DNA of 59,218 nucleotides from a virus (taxonomy: Duplodnaviria > Heunggongvirae > Uroviricota > Caudoviricetes). Under the pieces are notes generated by a model that worked only from the letters and a program-made list of their open reading frames with translations, was not told where the DNA came from and searched no databases. This document shows positions 1-57,376 of the stretch, one piece after another (the first letter of the stretch is position 1; every line of letters begins with the position of its first letter). The position numbers and the translations under genes are program-made. The stretch lies in IMG/VR virus record IMGVR_UViG_3300037851_000461, positions 1-59,218 of that record. One strand, written 5' to 3'.

Positions 1-29
1 AATCAGACGGTGAACGCACGACTTTCTAC

Positions 30-1025
30 ATGACGTTCTATCGTCTTGAATTGATTCCTATGGGTTCACCACTTCCTGTCGGGTCATATCCTCTTTACGG
101 ATCGTGGACAACGAGCGATACGCGCAAGAGAAAGACCTTCACTCAGGAAGTCATCGTTCCATATGCGGGCGGATACCAGACGGGAAGCAAATTTGCTCGT
201 GGTGTTCAGACAAAGTACACATCGGTCGGATTGGATTCCATGACCGATGGTGGCTCTCCATTCATAATCAAGAATAGCGGATACCTCACAGGCTCCATGT
301 GTGGCATTCTATTGGGATCGATGACTGGATCGTTCGATGACACGGTTGAAAAGAAGAACCTGCAATATTTCAGATATTATGAGTCGCACTCGGTCGTAGG
401 TTCGGTCATTCAAGGATTTGAAGTTTATAACATTTCCACGAATGACTTCTTCCTAGTCGGAAAAATCATCGGCAAGTTCACCTCCGGACCACTGGCAGGA
501 GAATCGCTTGTTCTCGGAGATGTGGGAAGTTACGTCTCCGCAACAGGTATTTCTGACAACTATCCAAACCAATCGTTCACATCAGCGTCGGTTATTTGCA
601 AACTCACCAACTCGGCTGTATCAGCAACATCAGACCTTTATTTCAGCGGTTCTATCTCTGCTGGTATCATCACCGGTAAAGGAAAGAACAACGAAACCGC
701 ATCCCTTTCCGTCAACGGTAAGGTTCTTGGAGAATACGGCAATCTGATTCCAAATATCGGTCGCTATTCTGGTTCATACATCGGCTGCTTCACCGGGTCT
801 TTTACCGGATCATTTGAGGGTCTTTACACCGGAGTATATAAGTCATATGATGACTTTGAAGAGGAAGTGGTCGAAATCGTCACCGGCAGCTCGGCGGCGG
901 GCATCACCCTAGAAGACATTCAGCGTTTGGGCATCCAGTCGTTGACCAATGCACAACTCGTTGCCAACAACAAGTTGGCTGTTCCTAAGAAGAAGAAAAA
1001 GAAGAAGTTCCTCGGATTATTTTAA
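30..1025 (+). CDS. Virion structural protein with [ST]GS/GSF repeats (fibre/spike-like)
   Basis: 331-aa ORF with YSGSYIGCFTGSFTGSFEG-type repeats and a poly-Lys + FLGLF C-terminus; first gene of the structural block. Confidence 0.5.
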   Translation: MTFYRLELIPMGSPLPVGSYPLYGSWTTSDTRKRKTFTQEVIVPYAGGYQTGSKFARGVQTKYTSVGLDSMTDGGSPFIIKNSGYLTGSMCGILLGSMTGSFDDTVEKKNLQYFRYYESHSVVGSVIQGFEVYNISTNDFFLVGKIIGKFTSGPLAGESLVLGDVGSYVSATGISDNYPNQSFTSASVICKLTNSAVSATSDLYFSGSISAGIITGKGKNNETASLSVNGKVLGEYGNLIPNIGRYSGSYIGCFTGSFTGSFEGLYTGVYKSYDDFEEEVVEIVTGSSAAGITLEDIQRLGIQSLTNAQLVANNKLAVPKKKKKKKFLGLF

Positions 1026-1048
1026 CACGAGATTTCTTTAGATTTCCC

Positions 1049-1056
1049 ATATTTAT
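1049..1056 (+). promoter_or_regulatory. ATATTTAT motif (putative late promoter or initiation signal)
   Basis: 10 nt upstream of ATG 1067; the same motif occurs before 9 other genes. Confidence 0.6.
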
Positions 1057-1066
1057 GATTTGAACT

Positions 1067-1702
1067 ATGAGCTATATCGACAACAGAGTAATCACCGTGA
1101 ACGCAGTTCTCACAAAAAAGGGTAGAGAACTGCTCGCCCAAAATGGAGCACTACAAATTACATCGTTTGCTTTGGCTGATGATGAAATCGACTATAGTCT
1201 CTACAACCCCAACCACCCACAGGGGTCGGCATACTACGATTTGGCTATCCGCAACACGCCAATCATGGAGCCTGTTTCAGATGAAACGCAGGTTCTCAAG
1301 TATAAACTCGTAACTCTCAATCCCGGAGTCACTTCCATCCCTGTCATTACCCTTGGGCAGACCAGCATTGAAGTCGATAAGAACTACCGTGGTGAAATCG
1401 TCATCGTTCCTTCGACGAACCCTGTTTACAACACCACGCTCGGATACACCGCAATCCTTGCCAACAAGAATGCAGGCCGTATCATCGGAGAATTGGTTCA
1501 AATCAATCAGGCTGCAACGATTCCTTCGTTCCTTGGAGATATCGGTTCGACAACGGCTCAGACAGCAGTTGGTCTACGCTTCCGTTTCATTCCAAACAAC
1601 GGTCTAACATCAACCCTCCAGACGAACTTGACCATCATCGGAAACGAATCCGGTGGCAGCGTCACAATTCCAGTCGTAGTCAACGTCGATACAAACGCTT
1701 AA
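1067..1702 (+). CDS. Conserved huge-phage virion (putative baseplate/tail) protein
   Basis: N-terminal VLTKKGRELLA...ITSFALADDEIDYSLY motif, which I recognise from large-phage structural proteins; lies in the structural operon. Confidence 0.65.
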   Translation: MSYIDNRVITVNAVLTKKGRELLAQNGALQITSFALADDEIDYSLYNPNHPQGSAYYDLAIRNTPIMEPVSDETQVLKYKLVTLNPGVTSIPVITLGQTSIEVDKNYRGEIVIVPSTNPVYNTTLGYTAILANKNAGRIIGELVQINQAATIPSFLGDIGSTTAQTAVGLRFRFIPNNGLTSTLQTNLTIIGNESGGSVTIPVVVNVDTNA

Positions 1703-1706
1703 TCCT

Positions 1707-2756
1707 ATGGCAGCAACAGGCTCATCAGTATTCAAGAATTTTGAGGCAGGAGACATTGTTTCCGGAAGAAGTCAAACGGTTTCGTTCGGTCTCTGGGCCG
1801 ATGGAGCCATTTCACAGTCTGCTTTCTACACCTCAAGCATTCAAATCTCGAACAGCGGTTCTTCTCTATCTGTAGGGAATGGAAGTTACTATTGGGATAT
1901 CTACAATCAGGCGCTTCCCGACACGAATGCTCAATCTCAGAAGTACTTTGCAATCGCACATGGTAACTTCTACGGTTCCGGTTCGTATTATGCCGGGGTA
2001 ACCGACGCATTGGTATATCCAGCCCGTGCCATCTACAATCAGTACAAGAATCTTCTTCTCCTCCCATCCGATACCAAGTTCAGTTTTAAGACTGGTAGTG
2101 GTGATGAGTTTGTCGATTCCGATGATATCTACGTCATCAACTTTGCAACCGACAAATACAAGGATCGTGTAGACGCCGGTCAATGGTCGATCAAACTTCA
2201 AGGTTCAGCCAGTTTTGTAACCCTAACCGACGATAGCGCATATCCTGCAACGGTTCGCGGAACCAGCACATCGGTTTACAATGTCGTTGGAAGCACTCCA
2301 AGTGGAACATATGATGGTCTTGGTCTATTCTACCCAAGTTTGGGAACGATTGTTCTAAATCCATCAAAGGTTGCCGCCCGAATTGGTTCGGAATTCCTTC
2401 CATACACATCGAATGTTTCCGTCACCACAAAGGCTGATACCAACTTCCAAAAGATTTTCAACGCTGTTGCCACAGGAAGCAACGTCACCGTTCGTGCATC
2501 TGAATTCGTTCCTTCCCGCCACTACTTTGTGCGCGTTAAGAACTCGGAATTCAACTATTCGAACAACCCAAGTTTCGTGACCGGCTCTGAAGGTGCATTG
2601 AGATTCGATTCGTTCTCGAACGACCCACAGGTTTACTTGACCACGGTCGGTCTTTACGACGATAACAACGACTTGGTTGCAGTTGCTAAATTGAGCCAGC
2701 CTCTATTGAAGACCTTCGACAACGAAGCGTTAATTCGTATCCGCCTCACATTCTAA
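1707..2756 (+). CDS. Virion structural protein (baseplate/fibre-collar-like C-terminal domain)
   Basis: C-terminal YLTTVGLYDDNNDLVAVAKLSQP resembles tail-fibre collar/baseplate adaptor domains; S/T/G-rich. Confidence 0.6.
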   Translation: MAATGSSVFKNFEAGDIVSGRSQTVSFGLWADGAISQSAFYTSSIQISNSGSSLSVGNGSYYWDIYNQALPDTNAQSQKYFAIAHGNFYGSGSYYAGVTDALVYPARAIYNQYKNLLLLPSDTKFSFKTGSGDEFVDSDDIYVINFATDKYKDRVDAGQWSIKLQGSASFVTLTDDSAYPATVRGTSTSVYNVVGSTPSGTYDGLGLFYPSLGTIVLNPSKVAARIGSEFLPYTSNVSVTTKADTNFQKIFNAVATGSNVTVRASEFVPSRHYFVRVKNSEFNYSNNPSFVTGSEGALRFDSFSNDPQVYLTTVGLYDDNNDLVAVAKLSQPLLKTFDNEALIRIRLTF

Positions 2757-2791
2757 AATAACTAACTTCTAACGAGAAGTTGGTGGGCGGT

Positions 2792-2801
2792 ATATTTATA
2801 G
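2792..2801 (+). promoter_or_regulatory. ATATTTATAG motif
   Basis: 4 nt before ATG 2806; preceded by the hairpin aacttct-aacg-agaagtt. Confidence 0.6.
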
Positions 2802-2805
2802 AGGT

Positions 2806-5800
2806 ATGATCAAAACTCTCGATAGAGCATCTGTCACAACCGTACCGTTCAAGACCCACAAAGCGTGGAATGTAGACACGGCTACTCAGGCTGATATTTT
2901 GCTTTTGGAGCAGAGTGGCAGTGATAGTGGCATCATCATCAACGATTATTATACATCCTCGTTGTTGGCTATCGAACAGCAATCATACTACTCGTCTTTC
3001 CGTGTTCTTGAAGGTCTCCACATCAGCGGAACTTTCTTTGAGACTTCCAGCATTCACTGGAGTTCCATTGACAACCCGATTAATTGGGAAGGCTCTTACA
3101 AGGGCTTGGTATATGATTCCGTTGACCATCTTTTCTATCGCAACCAAGAAAGCCCGCTCACAATGTTCGGATTGCGCATCTACAAGGATGTGTCGTATCT
3201 AGGAAAGCGGGAAAATCGAAAGATCAATGATCGCATTCTCACCGCTCGCCTTCCCATTGGATACTTCGGCGAGAGAATCCTTCCAAACAGCGTTAACGTA
3301 ACCGACTTCTCAAATTTCCACGACAAGTACACAATCTCCGATGATGGTCACACAAACCTAATCCTCAGCGGTTCAAACTTTGTTGATGTTGGCGTGTTGT
3401 CGGGCATTCCAAATCTGTCAGGATCGGCTTCATATTACAATCCAATCGATGAACGGTTTGGCGTTTCCGTCTCAGGTGATGGAGCATGGGTGGCAGTCGG
3501 GTCACCGATGGATGAAAACTCCTTGTCGTTCAGTAAGACCGGTCGTGCCTATCTCTTCAAGAGAACTGGTTCGGGTTATCTTGGGATGCAAACACTCTAT
3601 TCGCCATTCTCACAGGATGCCCTCACAGCCGAACAACTGGCTTCTGGAAGCGATGATCCTCTTTTGCTTGAAACTGAATTCGGTGATTTCATCATCTCCG
3701 AAGGAACGTCTTCTTGCTCTGGTAATGATACCCCATTCGGTCAATTAGTCGATGGATTTGGAAGATCGGTATCTTTGCAGGGAACGCACTTGGCAATTGG
3801 TTCACCTACCAGTATTGTATTTCCATCGGGGTCAACTTACGTCTCAACCGCATCTGCCTGTGTGACCGGTTCTGGCTTGGTTTTCTGCTATGACATGAAC
3901 TTCGGCGGCACTGAGAGTTGGGGAAGAATCAACATTCTTTCGAGTTCAAACGATCCCGCCGCAGAGCACGAATTCGGATATACCGTGAGCGTTTATGGAG
4001 ACACTTTGGTTGTGGGAGCACCCGGAACAGGCTCGATCTTCATCTATAACTACACAAGTTCAAATTGGGCTCTTTCTCAGACGTTTACGATGAACGTCAC
4101 AAGCAGTTTCGGTTCCGCTGTCAGTGTATGTGGCGACAACTTGGTTGTCGGAAATAGAAACGCTGCTGGCAAGGCGTGGTATTACCACAGAAGCGGTTCC
4201 TCATGGTATTTCGTCAAGGAGTTGATCGGTCGCACCGACTTCACAGGAAGCATTTATACAAACGGTCTCAATTACACAAGCAGCATCGATGGATTCGGTC
4301 ACTCCGTAACCGTCAATGATAGTTTCATTGCTGTTGGGGCACCGACTGACCGAATCTTCACCCCATCAGGATCGTCAAACAACTATTACGCAGGTTTGGT
4401 TTATGTTTACGGTCTCACTGGATTTGCATGTGATCAGCCATTTCCGCACTCCGGTTCATACTTCTCCGAAGCAAGTTATCCAATTCCAATGCAGAGAATC
4501 TTCAGCGAAGATTCGATTGACAATTCTTACTTTGGTCAGAGCGTTTCCTTGAACAAGACTCGTCTCGCAATCGGTTCTCTGAAACCTCGCGGTTCCCTGC
4601 AAGTAGAATACTCATCAAGCCTGTATTATGTCGAGGGTATCGAAGATGAAATCAACGATTTCGACGACACCCGCTTCACAGATGGATTTGCTTACCTCTA
4701 CAAACTCAACTCCAATAGAACCGAGTATCTACAAGAGAAAATCGTGCGCAGAAACAAGGAGCGCAACGTTCCTTACAAGCACTACGGTCAAGCAATTCAC
4801 CTGAGTCCGCAATTCATGGTTGTTGGAAGCCCTCTATACACCATTCCAGACCTATCGGGAAGTTTGTTCTCACAGAGCCTCTACCCAACCGGAGCATATA
4901 TTGATCAACAGCAGTTGAGAGAGTCGGCAAGTTGGGCATACGATGTTGGTCCTAACATGTCGGGTAGCGCATTCATCTACAATCTATTCGACCTCAGTTC
5001 TGAATATCAGGTTGGAAACGTTTTCTACAATCAGGGAACGTTTGTCATTACCACGACGGGTAGCCAATTCCAAAACATCCTGAACAACTCAGGCAATCGA
5101 GGCTTTGATCTACAATACCGTGGAGAGCACACAATCTTTGAGCACGAAATTCTCATCTCGATTAATCCGGGAGAATTCAATGTCAGCACCAACCCGTCAG
5201 CCCTTGTTCGAGATGCAAGAATCCCACTCGACATAAACAATGACGGTGTATTCGACTGGATCGACGTTGACCTTCTCCTTCAGTGGTTCAATGGAATGGA
5301 TGCTAACAGCAGCCTTTCACCAGAAACGGCAATGATCGTGGAAGCATTGAACCTATCACACGCTCCGAACGTTTTGACACAGGAGATGATTGATTACATC
5401 GAAACGGAGTTGAGCGATACCGGAGTTCTTGATATCGATGGAAGCGGTGGAGTTGATAGCCGAGACGGAAACATGATTCTCTATTGGTGGTTGGGTCAAT
5501 TGACACCGGCACTTTTGAGTTCATTCATGGTGCCAACCAGCACCAGAACCAACGTCAAGGATATCGACACCTATCTCCGTGGAATCACCGGAAAGAACAA
5601 GCCATACCCAACCAAGGCACAGGCAGAAACTCTCCAAGCCAACAACAATCTTGACCTCCTACCGGCTTATGGAATTCAAAACGGCGAACTGATCAAGCCC
5701 GATTTCTTTAACTATGTTGAAAGTAGTTCGCTTGACCGCACCGGCAGTTATCTTGCCCCATATATAACAACGATAGGTCTTTACAATGGTCTCGACCTCG

Positions 5801-5883
5801 TTGGTGTGGCTAAGATGGGTCGCCCGGTCAAGAATATGATCCAATACCCTCTGAATTTCATCGTTCGATTCGATTTCGGTTAA
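2806..5883 (+). CDS. Large virion protein: FG-GAP 7-bladed beta-propeller + dockerin-like Ca-binding repeats + collar-like C-terminus
   Basis: Seven [FY]G.[ST]V......[LV]..G[SA]P repeats; DINNDGVFDWID and DIDGSGGVDSRD; C-terminal YITTIGLY...LVGVAKMGRP paralogous to 1707-2756. Confidence 0.75.
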   Translation: MIKTLDRASVTTVPFKTHKAWNVDTATQADILLLEQSGSDSGIIINDYYTSSLLAIEQQSYYSSFRVLEGLHISGTFFETSSIHWSSIDNPINWEGSYKGLVYDSVDHLFYRNQESPLTMFGLRIYKDVSYLGKRENRKINDRILTARLPIGYFGERILPNSVNVTDFSNFHDKYTISDDGHTNLILSGSNFVDVGVLSGIPNLSGSASYYNPIDERFGVSVSGDGAWVAVGSPMDENSLSFSKTGRAYLFKRTGSGYLGMQTLYSPFSQDALTAEQLASGSDDPLLLETEFGDFIISEGTSSCSGNDTPFGQLVDGFGRSVSLQGTHLAIGSPTSIVFPSGSTYVSTASACVTGSGLVFCYDMNFGGTESWGRINILSSSNDPAAEHEFGYTVSVYGDTLVVGAPGTGSIFIYNYTSSNWALSQTFTMNVTSSFGSAVSVCGDNLVVGNRNAAGKAWYYHRSGSSWYFVKELIGRTDFTGSIYTNGLNYTSSIDGFGHSVTVNDSFIAVGAPTDRIFTPSGSSNNYYAGLVYVYGLTGFACDQPFPHSGSYFSEASYPIPMQRIFSEDSIDNSYFGQSVSLNKTRLAIGSLKPRGSLQVEYSSSLYYVEGIEDEINDFDDTRFTDGFAYLYKLNSNRTEYLQEKIVRRNKERNVPYKHYGQAIHLSPQFMVVGSPLYTIPDLSGSLFSQSLYPTGAYIDQQQLRESASWAYDVGPNMSGSAFIYNLFDLSSEYQVGNVFYNQGTFVITTTGSQFQNILNNSGNRGFDLQYRGEHTIFEHEILISINPGEFNVSTNPSALVRDARIPLDINNDGVFDWIDVDLLLQWFNGMDANSSLSPETAMIVEALNLSHAPNVLTQEMIDYIETELSDTGVLDIDGSGGVDSRDGNMILYWWLGQLTPALLSSFMVPTSTRTNVKDIDTYLRGITGKNKPYPTKAQAETLQANNNLDLLPAYGIQNGELIKPDFFNYVESSSLDRTGSYLAPYITTIGLYNGLDLVGVAKMGRPVKNMIQYPLNFIVRFDFG

Positions 5884-5900
5884 TTTTCAAAAGGAACGAG

Positions 5901-5910
5901 ATATTTATAG
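5901..5910 (+). promoter_or_regulatory. ATATTTATAG motif
   Basis: 15 nt before ATG 5926. Confidence 0.6.
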
Positions 5911-5925
5911 AAAAGGAAAACACCC

Positions 5926-6201
5926 ATGGCAGCAAACACATCAAAACTCCCTCCTATCCAGACAGGCAGTCCACAGAGATTGGAAGACCTTTACGCAAAT
6001 CACCCAACATCACGTAAGGATTCCAAGACAGGACCTGCGGGAGCAGTTGTTTCCAACGTGGTTGACATTCCAAACCAGTTTTCCAAGAACTTTGTCGCCA
6101 AGCCAATGCCTCGTCAGACGCAATTCACAGCCATGGCACAGAACTACGCAACACAACTTGGCGTAGGAACGAAGAAATACGCTCCTTCCGGTCGCGGTTA
6201 A
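5926..6201 (+). CDS. Small hypothetical protein (probably late/virion)
   Basis: 91-aa ORF with AAGGA RBS and ATATTTATAG motif. Confidence 0.6.
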   Translation: MAANTSKLPPIQTGSPQRLEDLYANHPTSRKDSKTGPAGAVVSNVVDIPNQFSKNFVAKPMPRQTQFTAMAQNYATQLGVGTKKYAPSGRG

Positions 6202-6225
6202 GCGAGGGAAGTCTAAAAAAAGGTT

Positions 6226-6804
6226 ATGAATCTCGGGCTTGATGCAAGTACTTCGTGTTGTGGATATGCCTTTTCCGAAGGCAATGTAATCGTTGACGCC
6301 GGTTGGATTGATACATCCAAAGAAGACACATTCCGCGCCAAATCAGCCAAGATAATCAATTTTCTAAATTCGACCGGGCGGATGGGTCAAGTTGAATGTA
6401 TCTATTTGGAATCGGCTGTATCCGGGTTCTCACCGGGCTTCACCAGTCAACAGACAATCGTTCTCCTTTCTCGATGGAATGCTGTGTTCGAGTATATCCT
6501 TCAGGAGACGTTCGGATTAGAAAAAGTGGTTCTTTTAACCAGCAATCAGGCACGCAAGGCTGTATTTGGAGCATGTCGGATTAAAGGAATGAAACCGAAG
6601 GAGTTTGTGAGACAAGAACTCGCCAAGTTATTTGACTTGACGCCGTACATCAAGTTCAACAAGATCGGCAACGAGGACAAGCGCAACTCGGATACCCTTG
6701 ATGCAATTGTTCTATCCCTTCATGGACACTTCTCGCAAAAAACCAACTCAAAAGACAAGAAAACTGGTAAGAAAGTTGATAGCACTTCTGTCAAGCCCGA
6801 ATAA
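6226..6804 (+). CDS. RuvC-like Holliday junction resolvase
   Basis: N-terminal LGLDAST, mid YLES, late DTLDAIVL acidic triad of the RNase H/RuvC fold. Confidence 0.8.
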   Translation: MNLGLDASTSCCGYAFSEGNVIVDAGWIDTSKEDTFRAKSAKIINFLNSTGRMGQVECIYLESAVSGFSPGFTSQQTIVLLSRWNAVFEYILQETFGLEKVVLLTSNQARKAVFGACRIKGMKPKEFVRQELAKLFDLTPYIKFNKIGNEDKRNSDTLDAIVLSLHGHFSQKTNSKDKKTGKKVDSTSVKPE

Positions 6805-7411
6805 GGGTGAGGCGGATGCTGCACGTGTCAAACTTGAGAGGTTGCAGAAGAGGTATCTGCTTGACGATGTAACGTTGGAGCAGATAAGCGAGCAAAAGCA
6901 GAATTACATCATCTCGTTCAAGAATGCTTGGGAGAAGAAACTCCTGACGGATGTGATTTGTTGGGTCATGAATGATATTCACCCGAAGGTGTCTGGAATC
7001 GGCAAGGATCAAATGCTTCTATTCGTTTCACCGACGCAGTATCGAACCATTCTCGGAGCGTTTAACCACTGCCGGGATCAATTCAACGACATTGCAGAGG
7101 TTATTTCAACCATCATCATCACGAAGGCAGGAATGATGGTCAATCAGAACGACCCGAGCAATGTTGATGACGATCCTCCTCCGACTGATGTTATCCATAA
7201 CGGAGAAGAGCCTACACCAGATTCAGGCTCAAACGAACCCGCCAAGGAAGAAGAGCCTCCACCGGCACCACCTCCGACTGACGACGCGTTCAGTAAACAA
7301 ATCAAAGCGCAGAACCTTATGTATCGTCTCTTTGGAGCAATCGATGTTGAAAAATGGAGCAAGGCAGAGCCACTTCCTTTAGGATTGCCAGATGAGAGTG
7401 ACTCAAAATAA
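6722..7411 (+). CDS. DUF2786-like domain protein with acidic/Pro-rich C-terminus
   Basis: LVRKLIALLSSPNKGEADAARVKLERLQKRY fits the DUF2786 pattern; start uncertain (6698 or 6722), overlaps the RuvC 3' end. Confidence 0.5.
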   Translation: MDTSRKKPTQKTRKLVRKLIALLSSPNKGEADAARVKLERLQKRYLLDDVTLEQISEQKQNYIISFKNAWEKKLLTDVICWVMNDIHPKVSGIGKDQMLLFVSPTQYRTILGAFNHCRDQFNDIAEVISTIIITKAGMMVNQNDPSNVDDDPPPTDVIHNGEEPTPDSGSNEPAKEEEPPPAPPPTDDAFSKQIKAQNLMYRLFGAIDVEKWSKAEPLPLGLPDESDSK

Positions 7412-7412
7412 G

Positions 7413-7442
7413 TTGACACATCATCCTGTGGATGAATAGTGT
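7413..7442 (+). promoter_or_regulatory. Sigma70-like promoter for the primase/SbcCD operon
   Basis: TTGACA-N18-TAGTGT; the spacer contains the palindrome catcc-tgt-ggatg. Confidence 0.5.
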
Positions 7443-7448
7443 TAATGC

Positions 7449-8414
7449 ATGTCTGAACTTCGATCCAACAACATACAAATTCTACTCAACAAAGCGTTGG
7501 GGCAGGAGGGTTATGTTCGAAGGAATACAGGCGATATCAAGTATTTCTGCCCGGTGTGCGGTCACAGAAAGCAAAAACTTGAAATCAACTTGGAGAGTGG
7601 TGCCTACCATTGTTGGGTCTGCCACTTTAAGGGTCTCTCGCTCTTCTCTTTGTTCCGCAAGTTGTCGATGCCAGAGTCATTGGTGCGCGAACTCGAAGCA
7701 ATTGTCGGCAAAGAACCGGCAAGAAAAACCTCAGAACTTGACAATCTATTCGGCGATCATACACACGAGACAGCAGTTGAGCACGTTGAACTTCCGGAAG
7801 GATTCAAACCACTCGCCCATATAGATAGAGATAGCATGACATGGCGACGCATCTTCGCGTATGCCAAATCTCGAAACTTTGATTGGAATCACATTTTGCG
7901 ATACAACATGGGATTCGTCGAATCGGGTGAATATGCAAATCGATTGATTGTGCCAAGTTACAATGGCTTAGGCAGATTGAATTTTTTCAGCGCACGGTCG
8001 ATATACGACAACACGTTCTTGAAATATCTCAATGCCGACGTAAGTAAGAACATCGTGGGCTTCGAGTTGTTTCTCGACTACAAACAACCAATCAACTTGG
8101 TTGAGGGTGCACTCGACGCCATTACACTTGGAAGAAACACAACACCTCTTTTCGGTACAAGCATCTTGAGTGAACTCAAGAAAAACCTTATAGAAAACCA
8201 AACTCCCGAAGTTCGTGTTATTTTAGACGACGATGCTTTGAGTAAGGCGATAGTTATTTCTGAAGAACTAACTAAATACAACATCAAGGTTCGACTCGTA
8301 AAGTTGAATGGGAAAGACCCAAACAAATTAGGTTTCGATGCAACGATAAAATTGATTGACAATACTCCGATTTTCTCGTTGACTGACTTGATCAAACACA
8401 GACTTGCATTATGA
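7449..8414 (+). CDS. DNA primase (Zn finger + TOPRIM)
   Basis: CPVC...HCWVC zinc finger, VEGALDA, ILDDDA (DxD), KDPN. Confidence 0.9.
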   Translation: MSELRSNNIQILLNKALGQEGYVRRNTGDIKYFCPVCGHRKQKLEINLESGAYHCWVCHFKGLSLFSLFRKLSMPESLVRELEAIVGKEPARKTSELDNLFGDHTHETAVEHVELPEGFKPLAHIDRDSMTWRRIFAYAKSRNFDWNHILRYNMGFVESGEYANRLIVPSYNGLGRLNFFSARSIYDNTFLKYLNADVSKNIVGFELFLDYKQPINLVEGALDAITLGRNTTPLFGTSILSELKKNLIENQTPEVRVILDDDALSKAIVISEELTKYNIKVRLVKLNGKDPNKLGFDATIKLIDNTPIFSLTDLIKHRLAL

Positions 8415-11400
8415 CAGAAACGGAAAAGTTATATCCCGACAGAAAGATTAAGGCAATACTTCACTTCAGCGACGCGCACATCCGACTGACCTCTCGTCAT
8501 AAAGAATACCGAGAAGCATTTGACAAGATGTATGATATTGCATCGAAACTTCCGGTCAATGAAACGCTCATAGTTTTCTGCGGAGACCTTTTCCATAGTA
8601 AGGTCGATCTGAGTCCCGAGGCTGTTCAATTGGCTTCGGAACTTCTCGTCAATCTTGCAAACATCCATCCCCTCGTTTTGATTGCGGGCAATCACGATGC
8701 TCTTCTCAACAACGATTCTCGAATGGATTCGGTGTCACCAATCGTTCAGAATCTCAAGCACGAACACATCCATTACTTCAAGAAGACCGGATTGTATGGC
8801 GTAGGTAACGTTCTATTCAACAACTTCAGCGTGTTCGATAACCGTGAGAACTATATCAACACGAAGGAAATCCCGAACAAACTGAAGGTTAAATATGACA
8901 AGTTGATCGGTCTCTTCCACGGCCCCGTCTACGGAATGATGACTGACTTGGGATACGCCGTTGGTGACAAATCTATTTCCGCCGAACTATACGACGGTTT
9001 GGATATCGTGCTCTGCGGCGATATTCACAAGGCGCAGACGATTTACATCGAAGAATTCACCAGCAAGGAAAACCAGCACAACTACAACGAGAAGGAATGG
9101 TCGTTCTACTATGACGATCAGAAGCGGTATATCGCTCGCAAGAACACTCCTATCATTCGTCAGGCTGGAAGTTTGATTCAGCAGAATCACGGTGAAACTC
9201 TCGACGGGCACGGCTTCTCGGTGTGGAACCTTGAAACAAATCAGTTCCTCCACGTTGAGATTCCAAACGACTATGGTCATGTCACCATTGACATTGAAGG
9301 CGGAAAACTGATAACGGATATCAAAGATATTCCGGTAAAGGCTAAGATTCGTGTTCGATGCAAGGAATCCGTTTCATCGGAAGTCAAACAGGTTATTCTC
9401 GATATCAAGAAGAAGATTCAGCCAAGTGAAATCTCATACGTCAGAATTGACGGTGAAACCGCCGAGTCAAACGCCGTGGCACAGGATTTGGCTGCTCTCA
9501 ATCTACAGAGTTTGGCAAGTGTTGATTATCAGAATCAACTCATTGAGTCATACCTCCGCTTGAATTACGAGGTTGATGACGAAATCCTCGCGACTATTTT
9601 CAACATCAATAAGCAGATCAACGCTGAGATTACAAAGGATCAAAAGGCGACCAACATTCGCTGGAATCCAAAGCGTTTCGAATTCTCCAACATGTTCTCA
9701 TATGGAGAAAACAACGTCATTGACTTCGGTCAGATGAAGGGAACGATGGGTCTCTTCGCATCGAATGCTTCAGGTAAGTCGAGCATCTTCGAGGCTCTTA
9801 TGTTCTGTATCTTTGACAAGTCGTCGAAGGCATTCAAGGCAGCGAATATCATCAACACACAGAAGATGGGATTCTCCTGCAAGTTCACATTCGAAATCAA
9901 CGGCGTCGATTACACCATCGAAAAGTCGGGAGCCAAGGATAAGAAGGGTCACGTTCCGGTCAAAATTCAGTTTTACAAGACCGAGAACGGCGAAGTCACC
10001 AACCTTGAGGGTGAAGACCGAGACAAGACAAACGAAGCAATCCGCTCTTATGTAGGTTCGTATGAAGATTTCATCCTCACAACCATGTCTCTTCAGGGAT
10101 TCAAGACTAAGAACATCGTTGACATGGGACAGACCGACCGAAAAGACCTTCTATGCAAGTTCATGGGTCTTGATGTATTTGAGAAACTCATTGCAATTGC
10201 CTCTGAGAGAATGAAGGAAGCCAACTCAAAGTTGAAACTCTTCTCCCGTGAATCAATTGACAAGAATTTGGTGGATATCAACTCTGAAATTGAAACGCGT
10301 GAGAAGAAGGCATTGGAACTTGCCGAACGCATCAAGCAGGGTAACGAAATCATTGCTACCATCAACAATCAAATCGTCGAACTATCGGAAAAACTTACTC
10401 CGTTGAGTGATGTTCCGACCGATATCGAACGCGAGCGTGAAAAACTTTCCGACGTTATCGAAAGTATTGCCGAACTTGAGAAGCAGGTTGAAGAAAAGAC
10501 CGAGTTGGTCGCTTCCATCGTGAAGGAACTCGAAGCACTCAAGGCATCTCTCAAAGATTCCAAGTTTGATGACATCGAAAACAAGATGAAGGCATACAAT
10601 GCCCTTGTTTCCGAAATCAACAAGATGAACACAGTAATCGACAAGTATGAGGCTACTGTGTCTGTCAAACTCGATCAACTGAAGAAACACACCGATCAGC
10701 ACGATTTCGACCCAAACTGCGAATTTTGTGTCAAGAACAACCAAAAGCGTGCCGATGAACTCGTTCGCATCAAGGAATCCTTGATGAAGGATAAGGAAGC
10801 GGTCACGAAGAAGGTTGAGGAACGCGATGCAAAGAAGGCTGAAGCGGATACTATGGCTTCTGTGGTGGCATTGTATGATGAATGGAAGACGATTTCATCC
10901 GCCGTTTCCGCCAAGACGACTGCACACAACAAGGAAAACGTCACGCTCCTGAAGAAGCAGAATGAACTTCTCTCTCAGAAGACGACGAAGGAAAAACTCG
11001 AAGCCTCTATCCAGAAATATGAGCAGTTCAAGGAAACTGTTCAGAAGAACAATGAAATCAATGCACAGATTGCGGTTCAGAAGAAGTCGCTGGGCAATGC
11101 TCAATACGATTTGAAGACCGCATCCAAGGAGCACACCGAAAATACGTCTCGGTTGGTGTCTCTTAAAGACCAAATCAAGGAAATCACCAACAAGATTGAA
11201 TTGGTCGGCAAACTTGAAGACGAATATGCTGGATACGAGGCTTACCTGACGGCAATCGGTAAGAACGGTGTTCCATACGAATTGATCAAGAGCATTCTTC
11301 CATTGATTCAGAAGGAAGTTAACAACATTCTCAGCCAGATTACCGACTTCACCATTCGCCTTGAGTCGGAATCCAATAACATCAACATTTACATCGAATA

Positions 11401-43889: not shown

Positions 43890-45395
43890 TTACAGCACGA
43901 TCTGCTCGTATCGTGCCGAATTGATCACTTCGAGCATGAACTCGTAAGGCGTTTGTGACGCGCCCTCAAGAACCTGCTTCATGATGGATGGCGAACATCC
44001 CGAGACGAGGGTTACCCCACGCTCGTTCTTGGTCACCGGAGATTGTGTCTGACGCGCCTGCACGTTCCAGAAGACTACCTGTGGCAGTTCATATCCGGCA
44101 GCAGCGTACTTGCGCTTCATTGCGTCGAAGTTTGTACCTCCGTCGCTGACGCAGTTGAATTCCATGTCGGAAATGATCATCAGCGTGGCTGGCATTTCGT
44201 CGGCAGGAACATCGTTCTCAACAGCAGCCTTGAGGATGTTGTTGAATGCAGCCTGTAGGTTGGTTGAACCTCCCCACTCTGCTTGCGACAGGTTGTGATA
44301 CTTGCTCCAAAGGTCGGAACCCTTGAGAGAAACAAGTTTCGAGTCGTCCGAGAACGTCATGAAGTGATTCGCGAAGAATCCCTTGTTTCGCTCCGCAAAG
44401 TAAATTGCAAGAGAGATACACACATCGATTGGCTTTGGTGACGAACTTGCCCAAGTCATAGACCCGGAAACGTCGGCGACAACCAACGCATTGCGCTGAT
44501 TCTTGCCAAGGTAGTTCGGAAGTGCCTTCCATTGCGCCTCAAGAGTCTTGAGCGCAGCATCGCCACGGCTCGTCGAACGAACTTCCCGAAGGATATCGTA
44601 AGGGAACAGGGTAGACGCGTTGACCTTGGAAGTTCCCTTTGCGAGACCTTCCTGCCACTTCGAGTAACGCACGCTGTCGTGCTTTGCGAATGCCTTCTTA
44701 TAGAGTTTTGCCGCGTAAGAAGGAACGTGGTCGTAGTTTACACCCGACCAGCCACGAGCCGACATGAGTTTTTCAACGACCTTGAGTCGCGAACGGAGAC
44801 GCGAGAGCGTCTTGCGGTAACGCTTGTCGTTCCACTCAAGCAACTGAACGAGACGGCGAGCCTGAGCACGCGTCTGTGCGCTTGAAGTGTTGATCGAAGG
44901 CATCCACTTCGCCACGAGGGTAAGAGTGGAGTCGTCGTCATTGGAAACGTCAACCTTGAACTGCTTGAGCATTACCCAAGCAGCCTCGTCGAACACCGGG
45001 GTTCCCCAAGTTGCGTCGAGAAGGTCATCCCAACGTCCGTAGAGCGGGATGTGCTTGAGAGTCTTCATTGCCACGGCTGGGTAGTTTACACACAGCCACT
45101 TGAAGGCAATACGGAAAGTGTTTCGCTCACCCTGACCACCACGGCAGTCGCGGAGATAGAAAATCGTACGGAGAGCCTGAACAGGATTCTCGTCGAATGC
45201 CTCTGAGAAGAGGGTCTGAACCTCAGCCTCGGAGCGTTGGCGGATTGCACCACCGGTTGAGAACAAATCCAACACCTTCGACTTGGTTGAAGCGAAAGTA
45301 AGAGCGCCATTCTCAGTTTGAGTCATGACGGTTGGGTTCTTGAGTGCCGAAAGCAGGGCTGACGACTTTTTGCGAGTCTTTTGAGCAGTATTCAT
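43890..45395 (-). CDS. DUF2828 TROVE/vWA-like (Ro60-related) protein
   Basis: TENGA..F.ST...LDLF, FYLRDCRGGQGER, YGRWDD, AKWMPS, VNASTLFPY, VADVSGSM (MIDAS), ISDMEF, GCSP. Confidence 0.85.
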   Translation of the reverse strand: MNTAQKTRKKSSALLSALKNPTVMTQTENGALTFASTKSKVLDLFSTGGAIRQRSEAEVQTLFSEAFDENPVQALRTIFYLRDCRGGQGERNTFRIAFKWLCVNYPAVAMKTLKHIPLYGRWDDLLDATWGTPVFDEAAWVMLKQFKVDVSNDDDSTLTLVAKWMPSINTSSAQTRAQARRLVQLLEWNDKRYRKTLSRLRSRLKVVEKLMSARGWSGVNYDHVPSYAAKLYKKAFAKHDSVRYSKWQEGLAKGTSKVNASTLFPYDILREVRSTSRGDAALKTLEAQWKALPNYLGKNQRNALVVADVSGSMTWASSSPKPIDVCISLAIYFAERNKGFFANHFMTFSDDSKLVSLKGSDLWSKYHNLSQAEWGGSTNLQAAFNNILKAAVENDVPADEMPATLMIISDMEFNCVSDGGTNFDAMKRKYAAAGYELPQVVFWNVQARQTQSPVTKNERGVTLVSGCSPSIMKQVLEGASQTPYEFMLEVINSARYEQIVL

Positions 45396-45437
45396 AGTTT
45401 GATTCCTCGGTTTAGAAGGTTTCTGTTTGTGAGACGT

Positions 45438-45468
45438 ATAACTATCCACACTTTTTCACGAAAGTCAA
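45438..45468 (-). promoter_or_regulatory. Promoter for the DUF2828 gene
   Basis: TTGACT-N18-TAGTTAT. Confidence 0.55.
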
Positions 45469-55340: not shown

Positions 55341-55403
55341 ACGTCAAGTTATAAATATGACCGGTGCCAACAAATGAGACGACCAAAAGTAAAAAGAGAT
55401 GGA

Positions 55404-55451
55404 TGGTGGAGTTGAAGGGATTGAAATGTGCAGTGAAATCCGATCACCTCC
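55404..55451 (-). other. 48-nt tRNA/tmRNA-end-like remnant ending in CCA
   Basis: GGAGGTG...TTCAATCCCTTCAACTCCACCA; 6/7-bp acceptor-like stem; the 3' part matches 18 of the 23 nt at the tmRNA 3' end. Confidence 0.55.
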
Positions 55452-55463
55452 ATATTTATTCAC

Positions 55464-56045
55464 ATGAAAACAACTAACGTTCAGTGTGAGTGGTGCAATA
55501 TCAACTTCAACATATCCCAATCTGAATTTAATAGAAAGAAGAAGAAGCGAACTTCGTTCTTTTGTAGTAGAACATGCTCCGCACATCATAGAAATGCAAC
55601 GGTGCCAAAAAATTCGTGGGCAAAGCAATATGAAAGAAATAAGAGTGTGTTTGATATAAAAACCCACGCAAGCAATAGGCTCGATGAATACTCTCCATTT
55701 AGAACATTCTTGTCATCGGGAAGAAGGAGCATACAAAAACATGAGGTAAAAATCACACCAGCCCATCTCAAGGAAGTATGGGAATCACAGAGAGGTATTT
55801 GTCCATACACCGGGATAAAAATGCTACTGCCGCCGACGACGAAGGATTACACATCAACAAGAAATCTGTCCAAAGCCAGTTTGGACAGAATCGATTCATC
55901 CAAAGGATACATAGAAGGCAACGTAGAATTTGTGTGTATGGCAATCAATCTTGCCAAGAACAATCATTCTAAGAAAGAGATGGTCAATTTCATCAATAGT
56001 ATTGACCGGGAACACATTCAGCATTACTCAAGCGCAACCACGTGA
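55464..56045 (+). CDS. HNH/His-Me finger endonuclease with N-terminal Zn-binding motif (putative free-standing homing endonuclease)
   Basis: CEWC...FCSRTC; CPYTG...SLDRIDSSKGY.EGNV.FVC..IN.AKN; ATATTTATT 3 nt upstream. Confidence 0.8.
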   Translation: MKTTNVQCEWCNINFNISQSEFNRKKKKRTSFFCSRTCSAHHRNATVPKNSWAKQYERNKSVFDIKTHASNRLDEYSPFRTFLSSGRRSIQKHEVKITPAHLKEVWESQRGICPYTGIKMLLPPTTKDYTSTRNLSKASLDRIDSSKGYIEGNVEFVCMAINLAKNNHSKKEMVNFINSIDREHIQHYSSATT

Positions 56046-56066
56046 AGGTAGTGTTCATCTGCGCTC
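56030..56066 (-). other. 3' trailer hairpin of the tmRNA precursor
   Basis: GAGCGCA/UGCGCUU outer and ACUAC/GUGGU inner stems with G-U pairs on the - strand. Confidence 0.5.
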
Positions 56067-56067
56067 G

Positions 56068-56448
56068 TGGACTTGGCGGGATTTGAACCCGCATCTTCAG
56101 AACTTTGCCCCACTCGTTTACAAGCGTATCCCTACTTAATCGGATGGTGTGTCGAAAGGGCTCTAACACCAAACTTGTTTCAGTTCAATTTGACGATTAC
56201 AGAAACCTCTATCGTCCTCATTCGTAGTGTCAATGATTCAACCCTACCACGAAAATCTCGTGCTGAATCATACTGCTTTTTCTTTCGATTAAGCAGCAGC
56301 GAGTTCCTCAACATTGCTGGTGAGGAAGTTCGTCTTTACCAAGTTTGACTTAGCGTTTATGTTTGTGCGGATTCTTTTAAGGAAATACCGTACGTCTTCC
56401 TGCTTGTGGATATGGGACTACGCTATGAATCGAATCCATAACAAGCCC
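56068..56448 (-). ncRNA. ssrA: tmRNA (381 nt), tag (A)AKSNLVKTNFLTSNVEELAAA*
   Basis: 5' GGGCTTGTTATGGATTCGA; 3' GCGGG-TTCAAAT-CCCGC-CAAGTCC-A; perfect acceptor stem with G3-U70; resume codon GCT after ATAAAC; tag ORF 56354-56289. Confidence 0.95.
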
Positions 56449-56456
56449 AAATTGCA

Positions 56457-56652
56457 AAAGTCGGTGAAGAGGGGTCTACTCATTCACAGGTCTCGTTGTG
56501 GCAAAGCCTCACTTTCGGGGAGACCACCTATTCAGCACTCCTTCGGATTTTCGACTACATAAGAGATTCCTACTTGACTTGTGCTGACCGAACCTAGGAA
56601 TGTCTATTGCTAGGTTAAGGAGTTAAAATGGCGACCCCTCTACACCGACTTC
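56457..56652 (-). ncRNA. Unidentified ~196-nt multi-branched structured RNA
   Basis: 20-nt terminal inverted repeat (18 WC + 1 G-U + 1 mismatch) enclosing three further stems; lies between a promoter and the tmRNA; no credible ORF. Confidence 0.7.
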
Positions 56653-56673
56653 TACATCATTCAAAGAACATGA

Positions 56674-56704
56674 ATAAGTATCGCCAAAAAACGGCTAATG
56701 TCAA
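56674..56704 (-). promoter_or_regulatory. Promoter for the ncRNA-tmRNA transcript
   Basis: TTGACA-N18-TACTTAT. Confidence 0.65.
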
Positions 56705-56758
56705 TCACTTTTTGAGAATTTATAGAACCCATTAGTAGAATCTTCTGTACTTATAGGT

Positions 56759-57376
56759 ATGGAATACCAACCATTTATCGTCTCCAACATCACCTACCTA
56801 GGTCACGACACCGGTCCGGGTGATGAATCGTCTCTCGGCTTCACCGAAGACAAGAGACCCGTCAATCTGGTAGGCTGCATGATCGACGGAAGCAATGGCT
56901 CGTGGGGATTGAAGTTCAAAGGCAATAAGGATGTTCATGTCTACGAGTGTCGAGTGTTCAACGGAACCGCAGCAACAATGGATGTTGAGGGCGGATCGCA
57001 CTATCAGTTCAGAAAGACAAGTTTCGAAGACAAAGGATATCGCAAGATCAAGCCGAAGAAATTCTGGCGCAGACAATCCGACGTGTGCCTTCGCTCTGGT
57101 GCTAGTTTTCTCGTGTTCGACGAATGCAAGATGAACGATGTTTTGGTCGGAACAATTGAAGATATTCTCCTCGGGAAACCGATGGTTAGTGACGTTTTCA
57201 TCGACAAGTGCACTTCATTTGACGGTGAGAAAATTGATGTTCGCGTTTTGCACGGAAAGAACATCGTAGCGCCAAACTGCAATGTCATTTATTACAACAA
57301 GTATCTGGTCAAGGCTTACTGCCTATGGTTCAGAGCAAAGACGTTCATCAAATCGCGGATCACGAAGAAAAAATAA
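56759..57376 (+). CDS. Short right-handed beta-helix (pectin-lyase-like) protein
   Basis: GCMIDG...WGLKF...DVHVYECRV repeats; basic amphipathic C-terminus. Confidence 0.55.
   Translation: MEYQPFIVSNITYLGHDTGPGDESSLGFTEDKRPVNLVGCMIDGSNGSWGLKFKGNKDVHVYECRVFNGTAATMDVEGGSHYQFRKTSFEDKGYRKIKPKKFWRRQSDVCLRSGASFLVFDECKMNDVLVGTIEDILLGKPMVSDVFIDKCTSFDGEKIDVRVLHGKNIVAPNCNVIYYNKYLVKAYCLWFRAKTFIKSRITKKK

Follow-up and report, generated by a model that had tools for sequence, protein, structure and literature searches.

A Caudoviricetes phage encodes, directly ahead of its tmRNA gene, a structured non-coding RNA (ncRNA) that has its own promoter and matches no known RNA family. We propose that it is an ncRNA gene of about 200 nt whose product folds independently, founds a small uncatalogued family and probably persists as a stable, protein-binding small RNA, a reading to which we assign a probability of roughly 0.55. 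The DNA analysed here, referred to as the window, is a stretch of 59,218 nucleotides at the start of an IMG/VR record (IMGVR_UViG_3300037851_000461) that is 123 kb long and estimated to be 50% complete. The original prediction of a structured RNA at this place was made from the letters of the window alone; the sequence elements that it named are found where it had put them and its base-pairing statements are correct for the window sequence. Below we describe how these pairings fare in a homologous locus and which roles of the RNA they favour.

Locus layout in the window and in a homologous contig

On the minus strand of the window a promoter is followed by a leader, the 200-nt ncRNA, a 6-nt spacer and a complete tmRNA:

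56677..56704, minus strand: sigma-70-type promoter with TTGACA (56704-56699), a 16-nt spacer and GATACT (56682-56677), from a promoter scan (10/12 matches)
56655..56671, minus strand: predicted 5' leader of ~15-17 nt, its start site placed by position relative to the -10 hexamer
56455..56654, minus strand: structured ncRNA of 200 nt (RNA position 1 = 56654, position 200 = 56455), from its fold (z -5.16), a homolog, covariance model R1 and 12 compensatory pairs
56449..56454, minus strand: spacer CAAUUU between ncRNA and tmRNA, read from the sequence
56065..56448, minus strand: tmRNA of the phage, placed second in the unit (Rfam RF00023, 80.1 bits; ARAGORN tag AKSNLVKTNFLTSNVEELAAA)

A neighbouring gene for a 328-aa protein has one close relative, of 77% identity, among 5.8 billion proteins. 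The contig that carries this relative, from a JGI metagenome and designated L004, has a layout that matches that of the window, with promoter, ncRNA, spacer, tmRNA and terminator, and holds no HNH gene:

L004:47-74: promoter TTGACA-16-CATACT, the only promoter-like site there
L004:96-294: homolog of the ncRNA
L004:305-687: tmRNA with the tag AKSNLVKTNYLSSAPVLAAA (85.7 bits)
L004:700-733: terminator hairpin

The promoter of the window is the same site that had been read earlier as TTGACA-N18-TACTTAT, although our scan reads its -10 element as GATACT behind a 16-nt spacer. The bases around it are likewise conserved in the alignment of the window with L004, and the leader holds GUUCUUUGAAUGA, which is invariant in L004. 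A tmRNA had been expected 8 nt downstream of the element, and indeed ARAGORN and Rfam place its start at 56448, 8 nt past the end first proposed for the ncRNA and 6 nt past the last pair of the closing helix; its 3' limit is set at 56065/56067 by the two tools (ARAGORN, Rfam). The spacer between the two RNAs is 6 nt long in the window as against 10 nt in L004, and in both sequences a U occupies position -1 of the tmRNA. Both loci were scanned for a terminator-like site between ncRNA and tmRNA and none was found, so that the unit consists of promoter, ncRNA, tmRNA and terminator.

A tRNA array of at least 46 genes (ARAGORN) on the same strand starts ~3 kb from the ncRNA locus. Judged by a gp46-like protein, no sequenced phage is closer than Microcystis phage Mel-JY01 and an uncultured phage of 484 kb, at only 34% identity each, and the lineage is therefore poorly sampled. 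No SmpB gene was found in the 123-kb record (about half of the genome), a search with model R1 returned no second copy of the ncRNA from the same record, and a repeated promoter motif was looked for and not found. A divergent promoter-like site, TTGAGA-18-TAGAAT (window 56712-56741, plus strand), faces an orphan gene for a 205-aa beta-helix-like protein (56759-57376), for which no homolog was found among 5.8 billion proteins.

Compensatory changes and strand

The ncRNAs of the window and of L004 differ at ~27% of alignment columns. RNAalifold predicted 53 pairs for the two sequences, all 106 cells of which form standard pairs, and 12 of these pairs are changed on both sides and still paired. 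They are spread over the closing helix P1 (four), the hairpin P2 (four), the domain P3 (three) and a short 3' hairpin (one). None of 500 shuffles matched this result, and when the pairing partners were slid by 1-3 columns only 0-1 such pairs were left. The original prediction had named homologs upstream of tmRNA genes as the place to look for covariation; the one homolog that we found in this position supplied the 12 compensatory pairs.

A covariance model (R1) was built from the two sequences, window and L004. It scored their sense strands at 235 and 233.5 bits and the antisense strands at 33-42 bits, and for the window the minus strand scored 235 bits and the plus strand 32.7 bits, in agreement with the earlier observation that the pairing favours the minus strand. 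A strand asymmetry of 235 vs 33 bits indicates an RNA and not a DNA repeat, while the one-base indels present in five alignment columns rule out a conserved reading frame. Helices with compensatory changes together with strand asymmetry are what a structured-RNA gene in general displays. Taken together, the element is a structured RNA under selection, neither a DNA repeat nor a product of chance.

Fold of the ncRNA

A 212-nt stretch that spans the element folds with a minimum free energy of -76.7 kcal/mol compared with -53.0 +/- 4.6 kcal/mol in dinucleotide shuffles (z -5.16), and 0 of 200 shuffles did as well. The L004 homolog gave a z of -5.36. The consensus fold is a multi-branched junction and not a rod, with the following parts:

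56633..56654, minus strand: 5' strand of the closing helix P1, RNA positions 1-22, forming 22 bp with 56476-56455
56588..56619, minus strand: P2 hairpin, RNA positions 36-67, of 2 + 7 + 3 bp and including AACCUAG/CUAGGUU; in L004 both partners of four pairs are replaced
56532..56587, minus strand: P3 domain, RNA positions 68-123, a 7-bp UCAGCAC/GUGCUGA helix around a 42-nt interior, with three compensatory pairs
56485..56531, minus strand: 3' domain, RNA positions 124-170, with either a GGUCUC/GAGACC helix or three short hairpins, from pair probabilities and the alignment
56455..56476, minus strand: 3' strand of P1, RNA positions 179-200, pairing with the 5' strand

The closing helix had been predicted at 20 bp. 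It is present and covaries in L004, and its true length is 22 bp with one U.U mismatch (56654-56633 with 56476-56455). In addition to the four P1 pairs changed on both sides in L004, one G.U pair has become G-C, the mismatch positions differ between the two sequences, and by our own reading of the alignment P1 gains 2-3 more pairs into leader and spacer in each of them. Comparison with L004 also supports the AACCUAG/CUAGGUU helix of P2 and the UCAGCAC/GUGCUGA helix of P3, both part of the original prediction. An extension through CAUUU/GAAUG is plausible, as it is present in both sequences with calculated pair probabilities of 0.76-0.97; covariation is uninformative on this helix because it is invariant. 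Other pairings did not withstand the comparison: the hairpins GUAGGA-AUC-UCUUAU and UCC-GAA-GGA are broken in L004, and ACUCCUU/AAGGAGU, which had suggested a pseudoknot or switch, becomes ACUCAAU/AAAUAGU there so that the pairing is not kept.

The least variable part of the RNA is the interior of P3, where 7 of 42 columns differ as against 30% in the helices. It contains the invariant blocks AGUAGGAAUCUC and UGUAGUCGAAAAUCCGAA and a 33-nt stretch with 3 changes, and the AGUA-GGA...UCC-GAA in it resembles a loop-E/S-turn motif. Conservation of the loops is suggestive and, at the observed divergence, not significant; by our own estimate an 18-nt invariant run at ~27% background divergence would arise ~0.2 times by chance.

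For the 3' domain two models stand side by side, since only two diverged sequences bear on the choice between a helix and three hairpins. The GGUCUC/GAGACC helix of the original prediction has a pair probability of 0.65 in the window but of 0.02 in L004. The alternative consists of the hairpins GG.GG/CCCC, AAAG/CUUU and CACR/YGUG and, by our inspection of the alignment, assigns the columns of this domain that vary to loops or to one compensatory pair. Its energies are -60.7 (window) and -57.3 kcal/mol (L004) compared with -62.2 and -50.3 kcal/mol for the GGUCUC/GAGACC version. Contigs from a sludge and a viral metagenome (runs X2 and X3) cover the ncRNA with one difference, 56489 G>A, which is C166U in the RNA; this changes a G-C pair to G.U in the GGUCUC/GAGACC helix or falls on a loop position in the three-hairpin model and thus fits both.

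We also noted that a change from CC to AU at RNA positions 57-58 (56598-56597, at the edge of the P2 loop) covaries with a change from GG to AU at positions 114-115 (56541-56540, beside the 3' strand of P3). The two changes might reflect a short tertiary pairing; since they overlap P2 and P3, chance is the other reading.

The tmRNA and the HNH gene

One further gene lies just beyond the 3' end of the tmRNA:

55464-56045, plus strand: HNH endonuclease ORF (phrog_3322, E 1e-20)

The adjacent HNH protein had been put forward as a possible partner of the ncRNA. As the gene is absent from L004, where the ncRNA is intact, it is a later insertion in the window and not a partner of the RNA. The HNH ORF separates the 3' end of the tmRNA from the terminator region, which in L004 comes immediately after the tmRNA (window 55341-56064; L004:688-780). 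The tmRNA of the window ends in ...GUCCACGA with no encoded CCA, while that of L004 encodes CCA. About 640 nt farther along the minus strand of the window (~55400-55430) there is a second, diverged tmRNA 3' end, which does include CCA (..CAAUCCCUUCAACUCCACCA). From this arrangement it looks as if a homing-endonuclease cassette replaced the 3' end of the tmRNA gene in the window.

The tags of the two phage tmRNAs share their ends (AKSNLVKTN...LAAA; window 56289-56354, L004:401-463). Between these ends they have diverged through substitutions and a 3-nt indel that keeps the frame, a pattern consistent with a tag that is translated. The longest complementarity between ncRNA and tmRNA is 12 nt including 4 G.U and is within the range of shuffled sequences. 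In a root metatranscriptome library (run X5) one contig aligns to the central part of the tmRNA (56115-56331) with 9 differences in 217 nt and diverges beyond 56115. This contig is the tmRNA of a relative in an RNA library and is proof neither of transcription nor of expression of the ncRNA.

Comparison with known RNA families

At the gathering score of Rfam 15 the tmRNA is the sole match in the window, and at E<=10 with permissive filters no match in 56000-56900 overlaps 56455-56654. The original prediction of an unannotated structured RNA outside the known families thus holds, and given the conserved promoter of its own and the compensatory changes in a homolog, a new family of phage ncRNA is a fair description. 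The RNase P P4 signature had been reported absent, in line with the lack of any RNase P family match at E<=10 and of a GAGGAAAGUCC-like block. Likewise the element is not a 6S-type rod, as its fold is multi-branched and no Rfam 6S match was obtained. Resemblances to the hairpin ribozyme (AGAAGUC), to 5S rRNA (GGUCUCCCC, AGUAGG) and to the T-box S-turn were set aside, as the motifs pair in a different way or are not conserved in L004 and Rfam gave no match.

Several phage RNAs are similar in kind. The species 1 and 2 RNAs of T4 (rnaC and rnaD) are also small structured RNAs of a large lytic phage and are annotated within its tRNA cluster, next to tRNA-Arg. They differ in being 139 and 119 nt long as against 200 nt, and in that no tmRNA follows them; furthermore rnaC has a tRNA-like T-arm and an acceptor-like end, which the ncRNA of the window does not have. 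There are no shared alignment blocks with rnaC and rnaD, and R1 with filters off found nothing in the T4 tRNA region. Sequenced in the 1970s and without an assigned function to date, the T4 species 1 and 2 RNAs are matured alongside tRNAs by the host enzymes RNase P and RNase III. GOLLD and ROOL (Rfam) are similarly orphan RNAs of phages and prophages with complex folds, often near tRNA genes, but they are several times larger and have no Rfam match at the ncRNA. Intergenic long ncRNAs of the Cellulophaga phage phi14:2 are highly abundant all through infection (bioRxiv 10.1101/2020.03.07.982082). Membership in this group was rejected for lack of similarity by R1, which with filters off gave no match better than 10 bits in positions 1-9000 of phi14:2.

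Reach of the family

The family is very narrow, with two diverged members and a few near-identical metagenome copies. The known set comprises the window, L004 and near-identical copies in a sludge metagenome, a viral metagenome and a freshwater run, the last being possibly the sample from which the window itself derives. Searches of 50,697 phage records by blastn with ncRNA and tmRNA as queries gave chance matches or none. Pattern scans of IMG/VR had 0 matches for the closing helix, the tmRNA 3' end, AGGAATC..GTAGTCGAAAATCC, TCGAAAATCCGAA..CCCCGAAAG and a 19-mer of the tmRNA pseudoknot, and the pattern CCCCGAAAG..CTTTGCCAC was found at 4 loci, none matching R1. A pattern scan of metagenomes gave one match (L008) and a scan of genome contigs three, all due to chance. 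Neither the 328-aa neighbour nor the gp46-like protein has relatives in IMG/VR. These wide searches used patterns or words, and R1 was run on fetched sequence only, so that distant members of the family may exist.

Phages that are related through the gp46-like protein (24-34% identity), namely Microcystis phage Mel-JY01, LR756508 and LR756501, gave no R1 match, and the tmRNA of LR756508 is preceded only by an AT-rich gap of 175 nt. LR756508.1, the 484-kb uncultured phage, encodes a full tmRNA (72 bits; L021 = 90934-94380), and it contains a second, 112-nt match to the tmRNA model at 414804-414915 (58 bits).

Proposed pathway and alternative explanations

We propose that the host sigma-70 RNA polymerase would start ~15-17 nt before the closing helix and read through both RNAs. 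RNase P matures the 5' end of all tmRNAs, and its cut at position +1 of the phage tmRNA would also free the upstream ncRNA with a short 3' tail. The closing helix, of 22-25 bp, could seal both ends against exonucleases, and it would be long enough to serve as a substrate of RNase III. Once released, the multi-branched ncRNA would persist as a stable small RNA, in which the least variable parts (the P3 interior, which holds the loop-E-like AGUA/GAA motif and an apical loop of 20 nt, as well as the blocks CCCCGAAAG and CUUUGCCAC) would most likely bind protein or make tertiary contacts. Together with the tmRNA and the array of at least 46 tRNA genes 3 kb away, such an RNA probably serves the translation and RNA-maintenance programme of the phage.

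A less probable but serious alternative is that the element acts in cis as a domain of the tmRNA precursor, a leader that helps to fold, stabilise or process the tmRNA (as an entry site for RNase III or as a 5' cap) and that is degraded after RNase P cleavage. In accordance with such a leader, 6-10 nt and no terminator separate the ncRNA from the 5' end of the tmRNA, its closing helix is as long as RNase III substrates are, and with two sequences the conservation of the loops is statistically uncompelling. Yet a processing stalk needs one helix, whereas at least three further helices are kept here by seven compensatory pairs, and only 3 changes are seen in the 33-nt stretch of P3. Moreover bacterial tmRNAs, like the tmRNA of LR756508, do without a leader of this kind.

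The window also encodes a Ro-like protein, raising the question of a Y-RNA-like partner whose stem binds the protein and whose branched module recruits an effector or substrate:

43890-45449: DUF2828 Ro-like gene (phrog_850 'RNA-binding protein', E 5e-144)

We consider this partnership improbable. DUF2828 does match an RNA-binding phrog and is annotated 'Ro-like' in mycobacteriophages. Y RNAs have a long stem formed from their 5' and 3' ends (PMC4201824), and the ncRNA resembles them (YrlA, RF02553; Chen et al. 2014, PMC4201824) in having an end-closing stem with a branched module and in belonging to a genome that carries RNA-repair genes as well as one for a Ro-like protein. The flanks of the DUF2828 gene are coding and free of YrlA, and a search for YrlA in the whole 123-kb record gave only tRNA cross-matches, leaving the partner RNA of the protein unaccounted for. 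Both phages that bear the ncRNA carry DUF2828, but they are close relatives and the co-occurrence means little. Against such a role, the ncRNA is located ~11 kb from the DUF2828 gene, whereas Y RNAs adjoin the Ro60 gene; in Mycobacterium phage Fezzik a sub-threshold YrlA-like match (39.8 bits) sits 125 nt after the DUF2828 gene (L033:4041-4149). At 200 nt the ncRNA is also about twice the usual 80-130 nt, and neither YrlA (RF02553) nor Y_RNA (RF00019) matches it even at E<=10. P1, viewed as a candidate Y-RNA-like stem, has a base, UAGAAGUC, that is the same in both sequences and an upper half that covaries freely; the latter does not point to a sequence-specific protein site. Furthermore R1 found nothing beside the DUF2828 gene in Fezzik, Tsamsa or B23; DUF2828 is present in 696 phage records. 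A YrlA-type Y RNA was rejected on the grounds that Rfam gives no match, that mimics of the T-arm (GGGUUCGA..CCC) and D-arm of the YrlA consensus are both absent, and that the ncRNA is not beside the DUF2828 gene; the partnership with DUF2828 suggested by the original prediction is left without positive support.

In two of these phages DUF2828 abuts a tRNA cluster, with an unannotated gap of 610 nt in Bacillus phage Tsamsa (L034:1913-2524) and a 110-nt 'tRNA-OTHER' in Synechococcus phage B23 (L035:4399-4508).

It is very improbable that the element works as a riboswitch-like sensor governing transcription into the tmRNA gene. Such a role would suit a multi-branched fold just upstream of the tmRNA with some invariant nucleotides in junction and loops, but neither a terminator nor an anti-terminator precedes the tmRNA, an expression platform is absent downstream in both loci and the following gene is non-coding. 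The 22-bp closing helix is also too stable for switching, no Rfam riboswitch matches, and the alternative pairing ACUCCUU/AAGGAGU is lost in L004. Finally, a DNA-level inverted repeat (a recombination or homing site tied to HNH) or a chance structure is scarcely credible, for although a long inverted repeat does lie near a gene for a homing-type HNH endonuclease, the G.U pairs and R1 favour one strand (235 vs 33 bits), the nested helices covary, the ncRNA is intact in L004 without HNH and 0/200 shuffles fold as well.

Significance

To sustain translation in a hostile host, large phages bring along tRNA arrays, tmRNAs and genes for RNA repair. An independently folding, stable ncRNA would be a compact example of this equipment: being ~200 nt long, with a promoter of its own, a known neighbour and demonstrated covariation, it could be cloned for tests of processing, stability, partner and trans-translation. 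On present evidence it is a rare RNA family, which we liken to the long-known small RNAs of phage tRNA regions.

Going further, we speculate that structured RNAs ahead of phage tmRNAs could form an accessory class for phage-directed ribosome rescue, or that the RNA could here stand in for the missing Y RNA of DUF2828; either way it would be a component of a trans-acting RNP and not a leader. We regard this extension as doubtful. If the first form of it were true, the target that the ncRNA binds or redirects might be SmpB, an elongation factor or the ribosome, and the phage tmRNA would thereby gain the upper hand over that of the host. Should the position ahead of phage tmRNAs reflect function, it would point to a new layer of phage control over ribosome rescue.
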